Below, in pieces: positions 52,170 to 64,000 of a stretch of DNA of 64,000 bases. The stretch lies in the NCBI GenBank assembly GCA_902587125.1, contig CACIJW010000001.1, forward strand, positions 205,566 through 269,565. The letters are read 5' to 3'. The translations under genes and the position numbers were made by a program. The first letter of the stretch is position 1, and each line of letters begins with the position of its first letter. This DNA comes from an uncultured Bacteroidota bacterium. Its GTDB lineage: Bacteria > Bacteroidota > Bacteroidia > Flavobacteriales > BACL11. Below the pieces are notes generated by a model. It saw only the letters and a list, made by a program, of their open reading frames with translations, did not search any database and was not told where the DNA came from.

Positions 52170-52616
52170 TTGAAAATTAATTCATCGATTTTGCACCTTA
52201 ACAAGAGACACCTTACCAAAACAATAACATGGAGGTTTGTTGGAACTTTAGACACAATGCTGCTTTCGTGGTTTATCACTGGTCAATTTGCAACAGGACT
52301 AAAAATTGGAGTAGCTGAAACATTAACAAAAATGATATTGTATTATATGCATGAAAGAGCTTGGTTTACTTCAAGAAAATTTAAAAGTTCAAAAAGACAC
52401 ATCATAAAGACTTTTACATGGAGAGCTATTGGCACAATTGATACGATTTTATTAGGCTGGCTAATCTCAGGCGATCATCTTATGGGGCTAAAAATTGGAG
52501 CCTTTGAAGTAGTAACTAAGATGATATTATACTATTTGCATGAAAAATTATGGTATAAGCTTAATTTTGGATTAAAAACTAATAATCGTTTAAAACCAAT
52601 GTCGAAAAATGACTAA
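52170..52616 (+). CDS. Tandem DUF2061 membrane protein (two repeats; TTG start)
   Basis: RHLTKTITWR..DT..LYYMHERAW and RHIIKTFTWR..DT..LYYLHEKLW. Confidence 0.85.
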   Translation: MKINSSILHLNKRHLTKTITWRFVGTLDTMLLSWFITGQFATGLKIGVAETLTKMILYYMHERAWFTSRKFKSSKRHIIKTFTWRAIGTIDTILLGWLISGDHLMGLKIGAFEVVTKMILYYLHEKLWYKLNFGLKTNNRLKPMSKND

Positions 52617-52685: not shown

Positions 52686-53774
52686 ATGATTATAATTGAG
52701 TACTTATCGAGCATTTTAAAAAATCACACTTTACTAGTAATAGTGGCAGGTATAATAGGTTCTTTTCTAGTAACATCACAATCCCTTCCGTTCATAATTT
52801 ACTTTAGTAAAATTAAAAATCTTACGGCTAAAGTTGATGAAAGAAGTTCTCATTCAAGTAATATACCAAATATCGGAGGTCTTGGAATTATTGCGGGCAT
52901 ATACATAATAACCCTATCTTTATCTTTTTTCATTTTAGACTATAAAGACTCAAAATTAGTTATAGCTCTATTTATTTCACTATTGATATTACTGTTTATT
53001 GGATTTAAAGATGACATGCTAGGCTTAAGTGCTAGGGCTAAACTATTAACCGAAATTTGTACTGCAGCAGGATTTATTATTTTAACAGATTGCAGACTAG
53101 ATAATTTCTATGGGTTATTTGGCATTTATGAAATCAACTACTATGCTTCTTTATTTTTATCAATTTTCATATTTGTTGTTACTATAAATTCTTATAACTT
53201 AATAGATGGAATAGATGGGCTTGCTGGAGGTTTTGGTATAATTGCAATGATTGCATTTTTAATTTTAAGCATATCAGCTAACAATACAGTTGCGATTATA
53301 TTGTGCACTACTATTATTGGCAGTTTAGCTGGATTTTTGAGGTTTAATTTAAGAAGTGATAAAAGAAAAATTTTTATGGGAGATACTGGCTCTTTAGTTG
53401 TTGGCTTTTTGATTTCTGTTATTGTAATGATTATTTTAAGTTCAAAATATAACAGTAATCTTTATGCAAACAACACCCCGGTTTTAGTTCTCTCAATACT
53501 ATCATTTCCATATATCGACACGCTAAGGGTTATGGTTATCAGAAAAAGAATTGGTAAAAGGTTTTTTGAACCTGATAAAAATCATATTCACCACAAATTA
53601 ATAGGAAGGGGCAAAAGTCATAAAGTTTCTTCAATAATAATATTGTCCGTTTATTTGTCATCTATTATTTTTTGTATATCGTTAATAAAATTAGATATTA
53701 CAATTCATTTTTTTATTTCACTGATATACTCAGTACTGAGTTTATTAGCATTAGTATTAATTTTTAATAAATAA
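52686..53774 (+). CDS. MraY/WecA-family undecaprenyl-phosphate sugar-1-phosphate transferase
   Basis: RSSH..PNIGG, GFKDD, NSYNLIDGIDGL, IFMGDTGS, DTLRV..R, PDKNHIHHKL. Confidence 0.92.
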   Translation: MIIIEYLSSILKNHTLLVIVAGIIGSFLVTSQSLPFIIYFSKIKNLTAKVDERSSHSSNIPNIGGLGIIAGIYIITLSLSFFILDYKDSKLVIALFISLLILLFIGFKDDMLGLSARAKLLTEICTAAGFIILTDCRLDNFYGLFGIYEINYYASLFLSIFIFVVTINSYNLIDGIDGLAGGFGIIAMIAFLILSISANNTVAIILCTTIIGSLAGFLRFNLRSDKRKIFMGDTGSLVVGFLISVIVMIILSSKYNSNLYANNTPVLVLSILSFPYIDTLRVMVIRKRIGKRFFEPDKNHIHHKLIGRGKSHKVSSIIILSVYLSSIIFCISLIKLDITIHFFISLIYSVLSLLALVLIFNK

Positions 53775-55077: not shown

Positions 55078-55686
55078 ATGAGTTTAAATAAAAATCTCAA
55101 AAAACACAATTATAAAACAACCAAAATCCAACGCGAGACTTTGCATGGCCACAAGGCGTATTTAATTTGGTTTACAGGATTATCAGGCTCAGGTAAATCT
55201 ACTTTTGCAAATTTGCTTGAAATTGAATTGCATAAAAGAGGGTTATCAACATATATCTTAGACGGGGATAATATCCGTCTGGGAATTAATAAAGACTTAA
55301 GCTTCAATCATAAAGATAGAGCAGAAAACATAAGACGTATCGCTGAAATAAGTAATTTAATGATTGATGCAGGTGTTATAACCTTAGCTGCTTTTGTATC
55401 TCCATATATTAAAGATCGCAAAAAAGTTAAACAAATTGTTGGTGCAGAAAATTTTATTGAAATTTTTGTAAATACGCCGATAGAAGAATGTGAAAGAAGA
55501 GATGTAAAAGGCCTTTACAAAAAAGCAAGAGCAGGAAAAATTAAAAATATGACAGGTATATCTGCACCGTATGAGTCTCCGGAAAACCCAGACTTAGAAG
55601 TGTTTACAGAGCGTCAATCGATTGAAGAAAATTTAGAAGTTATTATCAATTTTATTAATAAAAAATTAAATAAAACTCATGAATAA
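55078..55686 (+). CDS. cysC: Adenylyl-sulfate (APS) kinase
   Basis: WFTGLSGSGKST, LDGDNIR, RAENIRR, RDVKGLYKKARAG, TGISAPYE.P. Confidence 0.96.
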   Translation: MSLNKNLKKHNYKTTKIQRETLHGHKAYLIWFTGLSGSGKSTFANLLEIELHKRGLSTYILDGDNIRLGINKDLSFNHKDRAENIRRIAEISNLMIDAGVITLAAFVSPYIKDRKKVKQIVGAENFIEIFVNTPIEECERRDVKGLYKKARAGKIKNMTGISAPYESPENPDLEVFTERQSIEENLEVIINFINKKLNKTHE

Positions 55687-56584
55687 TTATATAGTTAATC
55701 ATTTACGTGAGCTAGAATCAGAAGCAATTTTTGTGATTAGAGAAATATCCGCTCAATTTGAAAACCCTGTCTTACTTTTTTCTGGAGGTAAAGACTCTAT
55801 TTTACTAGTGCATTTAGCTAAAAAAGCATTTTATCCAGCTAAAATCCCATTCCCTCTAGTTCATATAGACACAGGAAATAATTTTCCCGAAACCATTTCT
55901 TTTAGAGATGATTTAGTTAATAAGTTAGGTGTTCGGTTAATTGTTGGTTCAGTTCAAGAATCAATAGATAAAGGACGCGCTAAAGAAGAAACAGGAAGCG
56001 ATGCATCACGTAATTCCTTACAGATTGTTACCTTGTTAGACACTTTAGATGAATATAAAGTTGATGCTGCATTAGGTGGTGCACGACGTGACGAAGAAAA
56101 AGCTAGAGCGAAAGAACGTTTTTTTTCACATCGAGATGAATTCGGACAATGGGATCCAAAAAATCAAAGACCTGAATTATGGAATCTTTTCAACGGACGT
56201 AAAAATTTTGGTGAACATTTTCGTGTTTTTCCTATTTCTAACTGGACAGAGATGGATGTTTGGGAATATATTAAATTAGAAAATATTGATTTACCCTCAC
56301 TTTATTTTTCACATCAGCGTGATTGTATAGTCCGAAATGGTGTAATTTTAGCTAATTCTAAATTTATCAAGTTAAAAGAAGGGGAAAAAGTAGTTAACAT
56401 GACTGTTCGTTTCAGAACTTGTGGGGATATGCCTATTACTGGAGCAATAGAATCTGAAGCAGATGATTTAACTAAGATTATTAAAGAAATTGCTACTACT
56501 AGAGTTACAGAACGTGGGGGTAGAGCAGATGATAAACGAGCTGAAACAGCTATGGAGGATCGTAAAAAACAAGGATACTTTTGA
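55679..56584 (+). CDS. cysD: Sulfate adenylyltransferase subunit 2
   Basis: LFSGGKDS, GGARRDEEKARAKERFFS, WDPKNQRPELW, RFRTCGD, MEDRKKQGYF. Confidence 0.97.
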   Translation: MNNYIVNHLRELESEAIFVIREISAQFENPVLLFSGGKDSILLVHLAKKAFYPAKIPFPLVHIDTGNNFPETISFRDDLVNKLGVRLIVGSVQESIDKGRAKEETGSDASRNSLQIVTLLDTLDEYKVDAALGGARRDEEKARAKERFFSHRDEFGQWDPKNQRPELWNLFNGRKNFGEHFRVFPISNWTEMDVWEYIKLENIDLPSLYFSHQRDCIVRNGVILANSKFIKLKEGEKVVNMTVRFRTCGDMPITGAIESEADDLTKIIKEIATTRVTERGGRADDKRAETAMEDRKKQGYF

Positions 56585-56594
56585 AAAAAAAAAT

Positions 56595-57851
56595 ATGCAA
56601 TATAAAGACAAAGAATTATTAAGATTTACTACTGCTGGAAGCGTAGATGATGGAAAAAGCACACTTATTGGTAGATTATTATACGATAGCAAATCTGTTT
56701 ATCAAGATCAATTAGACGCCGTTGAAGAATCTAGCAATACAAAAGGCTTTGATTATATAGACCTTTCATTATTAACAGACGGATTGAAATCTGAGCGTGA
56801 GCAGGGAATTACTATAGACGTAGCATACCGTTACTTTGCTACCCCAAAACGAAAATTTATTGTAGCAGACACTCCGGGGCATATCCAATATACAAGAAAC
56901 ATGGTTACTGGTGCTTCAACTGCCAATCTTGCAATTATCCTTATTGATGCTAGAAAAGGCATGCTAGAACAAACTCATCGACATTCTTTTATTGCTTCTT
57001 TATTACGTATTCCTCACGCAATTGTTTGTGTGAATAAAATGGATTTGGTAGACTATAGTGAAGAGGTTTTCAACAAGATTGTAGATGACTATAAAGCTTT
57101 TGCAACAAAATTAGAAATTATTGATATACAATTTGTGCCAATTTCTGCACTCAAAGGTGATAATGTAGTTAATAAATCTAAAAATATGAATTGGTACAAA
57201 GGAGGTTCATTAATGTACCGTCTAGAAAATGTTCATATCTCAAGTGATAAAAACCACATAGACTGTCGCTTCCCAATACAAGCTGTTATTCGTCCACAAA
57301 CTATAGAGCATCAAGACTTTAGAGGATTTGCAGGTCGTATTGATGGAGGTGTTTTTAAGACTGGTGATAGTGTGAAGATTTTACCCTCTGGGTTTATCTC
57401 CAAAATAAAAACTCTGGAACTCAACGGTGAACGCCTTTCAGAAGCATTTGCACCTATGTCGATTACAATGACACTAGAAGACGAAATTGATATTAGTCGC
57501 GGAGATATGATTGTAAGAGAAAATAATAGTCCTGAAGTAGGGCAAGACCTAGAAGTTTTAGTAACGTGGATGAATATTAATCCTTTACTAGCTCGCACGA
57601 AGGTAATTATAAAGCATACTACAAATGAGTGCGTTGCAATGGTGAAAGAATTAAGGTATAAAATTGATATCAATACTTTGCATAGGGTTGTAGACATTGA
57701 AAAACTGCAGATGAATGATATTGGTCGTATTTCTATACGAACATCTAAACCTTTATTTTTTGATACTTACAAGAAAAATCGTCAAACAGGCAGCATAATT
57801 ATTATTGATGAACAAACGAATGAAACTATTGGCGCAGGAATGTTTATATAA
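56595..57851 (+). CDS. cysN: Sulfate adenylyltransferase subunit 1 (probable ATG at 56595; no fused CysC domain)
   Basis: TAGSVDDGKSTLIGRLL, EREQGITIDVAYRYF, DTPGH, NKMD, PISALKGDNV. Confidence 0.97.
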   Translation: MQYKDKELLRFTTAGSVDDGKSTLIGRLLYDSKSVYQDQLDAVEESSNTKGFDYIDLSLLTDGLKSEREQGITIDVAYRYFATPKRKFIVADTPGHIQYTRNMVTGASTANLAIILIDARKGMLEQTHRHSFIASLLRIPHAIVCVNKMDLVDYSEEVFNKIVDDYKAFATKLEIIDIQFVPISALKGDNVVNKSKNMNWYKGGSLMYRLENVHISSDKNHIDCRFPIQAVIRPQTIEHQDFRGFAGRIDGGVFKTGDSVKILPSGFISKIKTLELNGERLSEAFAPMSITMTLEDEIDISRGDMIVRENNSPEVGQDLEVLVTWMNINPLLARTKVIIKHTTNECVAMVKELRYKIDINTLHRVVDIEKLQMNDIGRISIRTSKPLFFDTYKKNRQTGSIIIIDEQTNETIGAGMFI

Positions 57852-61439: not shown

Positions 61440-62522
61440 ATGAAAAAAATTGCTTTAATTACTGGTATTACAGGCCAAGATGGCTCATATTTAGCTGAGT
61501 TGCTTTTAAATAAAGGTTACGTTGTACATGGTGTCAAAAGGAGGTCATCAATGTTCAATACGCAAAGAATTGATCACATATTTGAAAATCTTAAACTACA
61601 AAACAAAAGATTTTTTTTGCATTTCGGAGACTTAATTGATAGTTCTAATATAATTAGGCTTATCTCAGAGATTAGACCAAATGAAATTTACAACTTAGCA
61701 GCTATGAGTCACGTAAAAGTATCATTTGAAATTCCGGAATATGTCGCTAATACAGATGCTATTGGAACATTAAGAATTTTAGAAGCAATAAGAATTTTAG
61801 GTTTAGAAAAAAAAACAAGAATTTACCAAGCTTCAACATCAGAGCTTTATGGTAACAACATGCAAATTCCTTTAAACGAGGAGTCACAATTTTATCCAAA
61901 CTCACCTTATGCTGTAGCAAAACTATATTCATATTGGATAATGATTAACTACAGAAAAGCATATAATATATTTGCTGCTAACGGAATATTATTTAATCAT
62001 GAAAGCCCCAGAAGAGGGGAAACGTTTGTAACAAGAAAAATAACTATTGGAATTGCTAAAATTTTATATGGATTGAATGACAAACTTTATCTTGGCAATC
62101 TAGATGCAGTAAGAGATTGGGGACATGCAAAAGATTACGTTGATGCTATGTGGAGAATACTACAACATAAAAATCCGCAAGATTGGGTTATTGCAACAGG
62201 TTTGTCTTACTCTATAAGAGAATTTTTAATTGCATGTTTAAAAAAAGTTGGCTTAATACTAGGCTTTAGAGGCAAGGGGTTGAATGAAATTGGATATGTT
62301 ATTTCTTCAAAAAATGAAAATTACAAACATTTAGTTGGAAAAGAAATCATCAATGTGAGTGAGAAATATTTTAGACCATCTGATGTCAATAAGCTTGTGG
62401 GTGATGCATCAAAGGCTAGACAAAAACTAGATTGGAAGCCAAAAAGTTCTTTTGATGATTTAGTAGAAGAAATGATAACTCACGATATGCAAATGATAGA
62501 AAAGAAATATTTTAAAAAATGA
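61440..62522 (+). CDS. gmd: GDP-mannose 4,6-dehydratase (probable ATG at 61440)
   Basis: TGITGQDGSYL, NLAAMSHV..SF, QASTSELYG, SPYAVAKLY, NHESPRRGETFVTRKI, RDWGHAKDYV. Confidence 0.97.
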   Translation: MKKIALITGITGQDGSYLAELLLNKGYVVHGVKRRSSMFNTQRIDHIFENLKLQNKRFFLHFGDLIDSSNIIRLISEIRPNEIYNLAAMSHVKVSFEIPEYVANTDAIGTLRILEAIRILGLEKKTRIYQASTSELYGNNMQIPLNEESQFYPNSPYAVAKLYSYWIMINYRKAYNIFAANGILFNHESPRRGETFVTRKITIGIAKILYGLNDKLYLGNLDAVRDWGHAKDYVDAMWRILQHKNPQDWVIATGLSYSIREFLIACLKKVGLILGFRGKGLNEIGYVISSKNENYKHLVGKEIINVSEKYFRPSDVNKLVGDASKARQKLDWKPKSSFDDLVEEMITHDMQMIEKKYFKK

Positions 62523-63532
62523 AAGTTTTAATAACTGGTATTGCAGGTTTTATTGGCTTTCACACTGCAAAAAAACTATTATCTCAAAACTATAAAGTTT
62601 ATGGGGTCGATTCTATCAACGATTATTATAGTACAAAGCTGAAATATGACAGATTGTCTGAACTAGGCTTAGAAAAAGAGTGTGCAGATAAGTTTTATGT
62701 TGAGTGTAAAAGTGAAAAATTTAAAAATTTGATTTTTCAAAGAGCTGACTTGACAAATTCTGAAAAAGTTAGAATGATCTTTAAGGCTCATAAGTTCAAT
62801 ATTGTATGTCATCTGGCAGCTCAGCCAGGTGTAAGATATAGCTTAGTAAATCCTCATGCTTATATTAACTCTAATATCAATGGTTTTTTAAATATTCTTG
62901 AAGGATGTAGGAACAATAAAATTAGTCATCTGATTTATGCATCTAGTTCAAGTGTTTATGGAAATAATAAAAAATTGCCATTTAAAACAGAAGATAAAGT
63001 GGATAATCCTGTGAGTCTATACGCAGCCACAAAAAAAAGTAATGAATTGATGGCATATACCTACAGTCATCTTTATGGCTTTAAGACAACAGGGTTACGG
63101 TTTTTTACTGTTTATGGACCCTGGGGAAGACCTGACATGGCAATCTATTTATTTGCAGATGCAATTAAACAAGAAAAACCAATTAAAGTTTACAATAATG
63201 GCAACTTGTTCAGGGACTTTACATACATTGACGATATAGTGCAGGGAATATCAAATATTGTTTCTTATAAACCAAAACAATATTTGAGCAAAATTTATAA
63301 TATTGGAAATAGTAAGCCAGTTAACCTTATGGATTTCATAACTTTACTTGAAAGATTCTTAAACACCAAAGCCAAGAAAGAAATGTGTGAAATGCAGCCA
63401 GGTGATGTTTACAAGACCTGGGCAGATGTTTCTGAATTAGAAAAAGACTATAATTACAGTCCTAAAACAGACCTAGAATATGGCATAAAGTCATTTGTTG
63501 ATTGGTTTTCTTTATATAACATTCAAAAATAA
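62519..63532 (+). CDS. UDP-glucuronate 4-epimerase-like NAD-dependent epimerase
   Basis: TGIAGFIG, HLAAQPGVRYSL.NP, ASSSSVYG, SLYAATKK, LRFFTVYGPWGRPDMA, RDFTYIDD, QPGDV. Confidence 0.9.
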   Translation: MKVLITGIAGFIGFHTAKKLLSQNYKVYGVDSINDYYSTKLKYDRLSELGLEKECADKFYVECKSEKFKNLIFQRADLTNSEKVRMIFKAHKFNIVCHLAAQPGVRYSLVNPHAYINSNINGFLNILEGCRNNKISHLIYASSSSVYGNNKKLPFKTEDKVDNPVSLYAATKKSNELMAYTYSHLYGFKTTGLRFFTVYGPWGRPDMAIYLFADAIKQEKPIKVYNNGNLFRDFTYIDDIVQGISNIVSYKPKQYLSKIYNIGNSKPVNLMDFITLLERFLNTKAKKEMCEMQPGDVYKTWADVSELEKDYNYSPKTDLEYGIKSFVDWFSLYNIQK

Positions 63533-63538
63533 TTTTAA

Positions 63539-64000
63539 ATGAAACGTCCTGACTTTCTTATTTGCGGGGCTCAGAAGGGTGGTACAACTTCATTATTGAA
63601 TTATGCCAAAAAAATTAATGCTATTTTATTTTCCAAACTTTTTCCATTTTACATATTCACAATCTTAAGCTCAGTAAGCGAGTTATTATTTACTAGATAT
63701 TTCATTATCAATGTTGGGGTTGAAGGGCTTGGTATGTATGCTCTGATGTTGAGTATATCATTAATTGCATTTAATGTAATTGAAACAAGAACCAGCGAAA
63801 GTGTTGTATATTTTCTAGCACAAAAAAATTCAAAAAATCTAGTTTTAACGACGTCTCTTTTTTTTGATATATTATCATTAATTCTGATTACTTGCTTGAT
63901 GACAATCTTTTTCCCATTTATTAAAAACAACTTACAGGGGATGTCCTCGGTTCCAAATACAGTTTTTTTGTTGGGTATATTAATAAATACACCTTTAATG
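63539..64000 (+). CDS. Open-ended ORF: sulfotransferase PAPS-binding N-terminus fused to a Wzx-flippase-like membrane protein (runs off the window's right edge)
   Basis: Not in the ORF track. 154 stop-free codons from ATG 63539: MKRPDFLICGAQKGGTTSLLNY then AKKINAILFSKLFPFYIFTILSSVSELLFTRYFIINVGVEGLGMYALMLSISL and further TM segments. Confidence 0.75.
   Translation, partial: MKRPDFLICGAQKGGTTSLLNYAKKINAILFSKLFPFYIFTILSSVSELLFTRYFIINVGVEGLGMYALMLSISLIAFNVIETRTSESVVYFLAQKNSKNLVLTTSLFFDILSLILITCLMTIFFPFIKNNLQGMSSVPNTVFLLGILINTPLM

Follow-up and report, generated by a model that had tools for sequence, protein, structure and literature searches.

The window analysed here, a stretch of DNA of 64,000 nt with 29.6% G+C and no Ns, carries a surface-polysaccharide locus that starts at ~51 kb and is read on the + strand. 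At the distal end of this locus we identified an ORF that starts with an ATG at 63539 (+) and stays open for 154 codons without a stop to the window end at 64000, as read from the sequence and the ORF translation. The first 22 codons of this ORF correspond to the beginning of a sulfotransferase gene and the remaining codons to the body of a predicted Wzx-type flippase gene. The genes and features of the locus are as follows.

Start of the locus, + strand: genes for an epimerase-family protein, a membrane transferase (MraY/WecA-like) and a nucleotide-sugar dehydrogenase, judged from their translations only
52686 to 53774, + strand: the MraY/WecA-like ORF of this group, assigned by eye from its translation
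55078 to 55686, + strand: cysC, adenylylsulfate (APS) kinase, which contributes to PAPS supply (PF01583 APS_kinase, E 1.5e-64)
55679 to 56584, + strand: cysD, sulfate adenylyltransferase small subunit (PF01507 PAPS_reduct, E 2e-44), named on the basis of its location between cysC and cysN
56595 to 57851, + strand: cysN, sulfate adenylyltransferase GTPase subunit (GTP_EFTU, E 1.7e-43; GTP-eEF1A_C)
After cysN and upstream of the epimerase gene, + strand, in this order: dTDP-glucose-dehydratase-like, UDP-glucose dehydrogenase, GDP-fucose-synthase-like and GDP-mannose dehydratase genes, assigned from translations and Pfam
62519 to 63532, + strand: UDP-glucuronate 4-epimerase-like NAD-dependent epimerase (PF01370, E 9e-53), directly upstream of the fusion and the last complete gene
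63539 to 63604, + strand: remnant of a PAPS-dependent sulfotransferase gene, a start codon and 21 codons (MKRPDFLICGAQKGGTTSLLNY) that include the 5'-phosphosulfate-binding (PSB) loop
63596 to 63598, + strand: in-frame TTG read from the sequence, a possible alternative start giving MNYAKKINAILF…
63604/63605, + strand: joint of the two parent genes, in frame, with 0 bp common to the observed parent alleles
63605 to 64000, + strand: Wzx-type flippase gene (MOP superfamily, Polysacc_synt) from codon 18 onward, assigned by homology to the proteins P0001 and P0002 and running past the window end

The listed start of cysN, a TTG at 56490, overlaps cysD by 95 nt; a start at the ATG at 56595, located 11 nt past the cysD stop, is more probable. 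The presence of cysC, cysD and cysN within the polysaccharide locus allows us to predict a sulfated surface glycan and, together with the sugar-nucleotide genes upstream, is the reason to expect a sulfotransferase in the locus. The combination of PAPS genes and sulfotransferases has been described as a hallmark of sulfated polysaccharide clusters (PMC11641403), in which PAPS synthesis genes and sulfotransferases are paired with either Wzx or ABC export (PMC11641403, PMC8205485), as in the synechan xss cluster of Synechocystis with its two sulfotransferases, XssA and XssE, and a Wzx (PMC8205485). The upstream sugar-nucleotide genes of the window, which are of the dehydrogenase, GDP-mannose dehydratase and epimerase-family types, provide the setting of a Wzx/Wzy-type cluster for the flippase. 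A 148-aa ORF (52170 to 52616), located ~2.5 kb upstream from the PAPS genes, contains a membrane module of ~65 residues that is internally duplicated, with the pattern …KT.TWR..GT.DT.LL.W…KM.LYY.HE..W… occurring twice.

The hybrid ORF is separated from the stop codon of the epimerase gene by a 6-nt spacer, TTTTAA (63533 to 63538), so that both its start position and its open frame up to 64000 agree with the original prediction. The epimerase itself has its next relative in a homology search at only 65% identity, and its homologues with 62-65% identity carry the JGI name UDP-glucuronate 4-epimerase. When the exact protein sequences of the epimerase and of P0002 were looked up, no contigs were returned. 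The visible 154-aa fragment of the hybrid, about one-third of the protein, gave no matches in Pfam and NCBIfam, as did its 35-aa N-terminus, and matched nothing in a word-indexed search of 5.8 billion proteins. A protein scan of metagenome contigs returned no match to the hybrid ORF, and a codon-degenerate DNA pattern of flippase residues 26 to 40 had no match either. By exhaustive search of 1.84 billion cluster representatives, four matches to the hybrid ORF were identified.

P0001, 418 aa: 48% identity over query residues 35 to 154, E 1.2e-28
P0002, 56 aa: 95% identity over query residues 22 to 61, E 8.3e-14
P0003, 423 aa: 31% identity over query residues 32 to 152, E 1.8e-5
P0004, 431 aa: 29% identity over query residues 32 to 125, E 7.1e-4

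Residues 1 to 22 of the ORF contain the PSB loop of sulfotransferases (PxFxIxGxxKxGTT/S), which reads PDFLICGAQKGGTT and occupies residues 4 to 17. A strict version of the pattern, [PA][DN]F.[ILV].G..[KR].G[TS][TS], has a single match in the six frames of the 64-kb window, at the ORF starting at 63539, and none in 200 shuffled windows. Among 185,579 species genomes, one per species, which were scanned with peptide patterns taken from the whole ORF, a single locus was confirmed, with residues 1 to 22 only: the sole significant match to these residues, at 73% identity, is the N-terminal end of a cyanobacterial protein of 297 aa (L001) that starts with MKRPDFLIIGVQRGGTSSLFRYLMEHPQI… and scores 68.8 bits with Sulfotransfer_1. 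The first 35 residues have one match in the PDB, to residues 7 to 29 of the sulfotransferase 3RNL, where the PSB motif stands in the corresponding place; its E-value of 0.98 is not significant by itself. A 32-aa sulfotransferase N-terminus that we reconstructed and padded with X to 40 aa found no candidates in the word-indexed homology search. The unique pattern, the 73% identity with L001 and the metagenome contigs described below, in which the same DNA opens a sulfotransferase gene, bear out the PSB loop that had been recognised in the original prediction.

A PSB loop binds PAPS only inside a whole sulfotransferase fold that includes the 3'-phosphate-binding motif. The full fold of ~250 residues, with the 3'-phosphate-binding motif and the catalytic base, is absent from the hybrid, in which the flippase takes over from residue 23 and no Pfam or NCBIfam sulfotransferase family is matched, and the stub is unable to function as a sulfotransferase. 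The hybrid resembles bacterial PAPS-dependent polysaccharide sulfotransferases (PF00685, PF13469) in having an N-terminal PSB loop in the normal position, in its location within a Wzx-type glycan locus with its own cysC, cysD and cysN, and in that a full gene occupies this place in related strains. However, the 22 residues that it keeps are a remnant without the 3'-phosphate-binding motif, catalytic residues or fold, and do not make it a member of these families.

From residue 23 onward the ORF has a different character. Two of its homologues, P0001 (35.7 bits) and P0003 (46.3 bits), pass the 28.2-bit cutoff of PF01943 (Polysacc_synt), and hydropathy analysis revealed three membrane-type segments with centres near residues 37, 64-73 and 108-123, whereas residues 1 to 22 are not hydrophobic. 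A complete Wzx flippase has about 12 transmembrane helices, and the part inside the window would contain the first three. Based on this homology and on the three segments, we assign the body of the ORF to the Wzx-type flippases, within a subfamily that has rarely been sampled. This is in line with the flippase-like transmembrane part that the original prediction had placed after the switch; the sequence GVEGLGMYAL, which it had treated as a Wzx-like motif, is not a defined motif but a region with one invariant Gly in a small alignment. Like other Wzx repeat-unit flippases (MOP superfamily, PF01943), the hybrid is homologous from residue 23 to members that pass the family cutoff, it has hydrophobic segments at the places of their first helices, and it sits in a locus of sugar-nucleotide and glycosyltransferase genes. 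It differs from them by a foreign 22-residue peptide in place of the native cytoplasmic tail, which has 17 residues in the nearest allele, and by the sparseness of its subfamily, with 4 matches among 1.84 billion representative proteins; the comparison covers the 132 flippase residues visible in the window. The only full-length relative of this subfamily with genomic context, 48% identical, is found in L002 (JGI 3300009432), where a 295-aa Sulfotransfer_3 gene (1592 to 2479) lies directly 3' of the flippase gene; the linkage of a sulfotransferase with a flippase thus recurs in the subfamily.

Seawater metagenomes contain both parent genes in unfused form, and the contigs of both forms break exactly between 63604 and 63605, which makes precise the switch previously placed at ~63605. 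The left parent is represented by two contigs from different studies. The first of them (X28, 191 nt) matches 63464 to 63604 with 4 mismatches and then continues with TTAAATGAGCACCCTGAGATACAAATGCCA, encoding LNEHPEIQMP, so that its translation runs from …TTSLLNY before the breakpoint into LNEHPEIQMP after it, which is the continuation of an intact sulfotransferase. The second (X38, 212 nt) matches 63401 to 63604 and continues with TTAAATGA. Across the breakpoint the left-parent form reads …AATTAT-TTAAATGAGCACCC…, and the cyanobacterial sulfotransferase L001 has the corresponding sequence YLxEHPxI past its PSB loop. Because of this resemblance, we conclude that an ordinary sulfotransferase gene lies directly 3' of the epimerase gene in related strains. 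The loop-coding DNA of the window is 95-97% identical to the start of this ordinary gene, and the stub has one listed difference from the intact 5' end, at 63546.

The right parent was found in a third study, as a 151-nt contig (X24) in which 66 unlike letters ending in GAGCTTGTATTAAATCTGAATAAAAAAGCA (ELVLNLNKKA) precede a match to 63605 to 63689; over the breakpoint this form reads …AAAAAAGCA-GCCAAAAAAATT…. The same form is represented by P0002, a Tara Oceans gene fragment from surface water of station 094 that reads MGILKYKELVLNLNKKAAKKINAILF… and is 95% identical to the hybrid from residue 22. In this fragment, MGILKYKELVLNLNKKA-AKKINAILFSKLFPFYMF…, the N-terminal 17 residues are different and the sequence is near-identical to the window from Ala23, that is, the native start MGILKYKELVLNLNKKA is followed by AKKINAILF… at the breakpoint. 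One more contig (X26) matches the window only from 63605, with its first letter outside the match, and carries the I39M substitution of P0002 (63655 A>G). Both unfused parents therefore occur in close relatives of the window, with similarity ending at one and the same base from the left (X28, X38) and from the right (X24, X26 and P0002). When the parent sequences are compared at 63604/63605, they have no common base on either side, and the joint is blunt and unambiguous. Two adenine runs (A6 and A7) surround the breakpoint in the 5' region of the native flippase gene, formed by 63605 to 63614 and the upstream part of X24 (AATAAAAAAGCA followed by GCCAAAAAAATT).

These parent alleles bear on an option raised in the original prediction, a flippase with a PAPS-sensing N-terminal loop, here taken as an evolved flippase whose PSB-like loop would bind PAPS or PAP and couple export to sulfation. 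In its favour are only that the loop is present and in frame and that the locus contains PAPS genes. Against it, flippase alleles with 95-99% identity, among them P0002 and X24, have an unrelated N-terminus, and the 66 nt that encode the loop are the 5' end of a normal sulfotransferase gene in relatives, stopping at the same base. Moreover, the search of 1.84 billion representative proteins revealed no second flippase with an N-terminus of this type, the 3'-phosphate-binding motif is absent, and a PSB loop is known to need the whole fold. We reject a PAPS-sensing flippase as extremely improbable. The direction of the change is loss, because the PSB loop is meaningless outside the sulfotransferase fold and the native flippase start is present in alleles that are 95-99% identical.

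The most probable origin of the hybrid ORF is, in our view, a deletion or illegitimate recombination in the lineage of this strain that joined two surface-polysaccharide genes. Such an event would have taken out all sulfotransferase codons from 23 onward, flippase codons 1 to 17 and any DNA in between, a loss of ~0.8-0.9 kb if the sulfotransferase and flippase genes were adjacent, as estimated from the 264-295-aa length of the sulfotransferases in L001 and L002. Ancestral adjacency was sought in L002, where the partial gene upstream of the flippase was not recognisable as a sulfotransferase by Pfam, BLASTP or PDB searches; its interpretation as a sulfotransferase C-terminus, which would have given the ancestral gene order, was dropped. 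Since the joint is in frame, the flippase would inherit the sulfotransferase ATG together with tight coupling to the epimerase gene, and would now be translated within one operon from a start located 6 nt past the epimerase stop. The foreign 22-residue cytoplasmic tail, with 3 K/R and 1 D/E, would take the place of the native 17-residue tail, with 4 K/R and 1 D/E; neither tail is hydrophobic, and the fused tail precedes the first membrane segment. The flippase is probably still functional, since all membrane segments visible in the window are kept and the new tail is similar in charge and hydropathy to the native one.

Where a locus still builds lipid-linked units, losing the Wzx flippase is usually harmful, and thus a surviving in-frame event is what selection would leave. 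The strain would lose one sulfation step yet keep export, and the surface glycan would be altered in this respect. The deletion that fuses a sulfotransferase start to a flippase, one of the options of the original prediction, is the one that best fits the two unfused parents and their coincident breakpoints. Its corollary that sulfation has been switched off is not supported, given that the cys genes are intact, that the locus continues past the window, and that L002 has a Sulfotransfer_3 gene downstream of its flippase; from this comparison, further sulfotransferase genes may lie beyond 64000. Two points run counter to a deletion: spontaneous deletions most commonly leave a signature other than a blunt joint that lacks microhomology, and all contigs extending up to the breakpoint, whether from the left or from the right, belong to unfused forms. 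The more complete scenario, in which the fusion is real and has been selected, the deletion having dropped a sulfation step and survived by landing in frame and lending its start to an essential flippase gene, is put forward tentatively, as a serious candidate that we stop short of calling probable.

The absence of the fused form among these contigs has another potential explanation, namely that a chimeric molecule or a mis-assembly joined two places of a genome in which both genes are intact, either by a chimera of multiple displacement amplification or PCR, or by a consensus stitched from co-occurring strains in a hypervariable locus. When the contigs of 31 public runs were placed on the region, none crossed 63604/63605, while both unfused forms break precisely there; furthermore, the locus is strain-variable, and its flanks match different runs at different identities. 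Pieces that are 100% identical to the window were found on both sides of the joint at a depth of 2-3, covering 62669 to 63204 (X3), 63099 to 63398 (X2) and 63692 to 64000 (X1). In a search with the last 10 kb of the window, the best public run contained 17% of the sampled words. The missing spanning contigs are weak evidence, because the organism is present at ~2-3x contig depth in most runs and the interval 63399 to 63660 is uncovered at 100% identity in all of them. Several features of the joint argue against an artefact. With 0 bp common to the parents, a k-mer graph or overlap assembler has no basis for a mis-join; the joint preserves the frame and leaves the flippase with a start codon, an outcome that has a probability of ~1 in 3 by chance and is expected under selection; and the window is free of Ns and derives from a source contig of 334,420 nt. 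A graph mis-join is thus unlikely, a chimeric amplification template is possible, and we regard an artefact as a whole as rather unlikely, though the most substantial competitor of a deletion that would be present in the genome of the organism.

A real deletion could also have left the stub untranslated, with the flippase starting at the in-frame TTG at 63596 or further downstream, and the 5' 57 nt being a dead scar. In addition to this TTG, such a start would be consistent with the TTG start of the 48% identical relative P0001 and with the variable length of the N-terminal tail among flippase relatives. However, the ATG at 63539, 6 nt past the upstream stop, is at the position of the intact sulfotransferase start in related strains, the frame from there on is uninterrupted, and the one listed difference from the intact gene, at 63546, indicates no decay. 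An untranslated stub is, in our judgement, improbable. The ORF is to be annotated as a flippase with a sulfotransferase-derived leader, that is, neither as a sulfotransferase nor as a new bifunctional protein.

The proposed event is of a familiar kind, a gene remnant in a hypervariable locus, and invokes no new mechanism; it is mildly unusual in that the scar would supply the start codon of the downstream gene. A comparable case is the capsule locus of marine Vibrio, where strain KMM 8419 differs from strain KMM 8434 in whether it has a sulfotransferase gene (PMC11641403). The likeness to such scars in hypervariable O-antigen and capsule loci consists in a modifying enzyme being gained or lost between strains, an otherwise conserved locus and the coexistence of the parental forms, whereas here an in-frame fusion would give a start codon to an essential downstream gene, and the event comes from one assembly of an uncultured organism. 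If true, the fusion would provide a tidy, datable case of the diversification of a surface-glycan locus in abundant marine bacteria, with a bearing on recognition by phages and grazers, and would mean that a Wzx flippase tolerates the exchange of its N-terminal tail; a repeat unit short of one sulfate would presumably be tolerated as well. It would also be an example of glycotype micro-evolution caught in the act, in which both ancestral forms continue to circulate side by side in the ocean.

The metagenome comparisons revealed sequence variation along the flippase part of the hybrid as well. A>G variants at 63655, 63755 and 63881 recur across runs of different studies, which shows that at least two flippase alleles with 98-99% identity are co-circulating; the first of these variants replaces Ile39 by Met and is the mark of the unfused allele of P0002, X24 and X26. 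Contigs from seawater metatranscriptomes were placed on the epimerase part (X11, 63300 to 63440, with 3 mismatches in 141 nt) and on the flippase part (X14, 63737 to 63935, with 4 mismatches in 199 nt). Close relatives of the epimerase and flippase genes therefore appear to be transcribed in situ, although the libraries may contain carried-over DNA.
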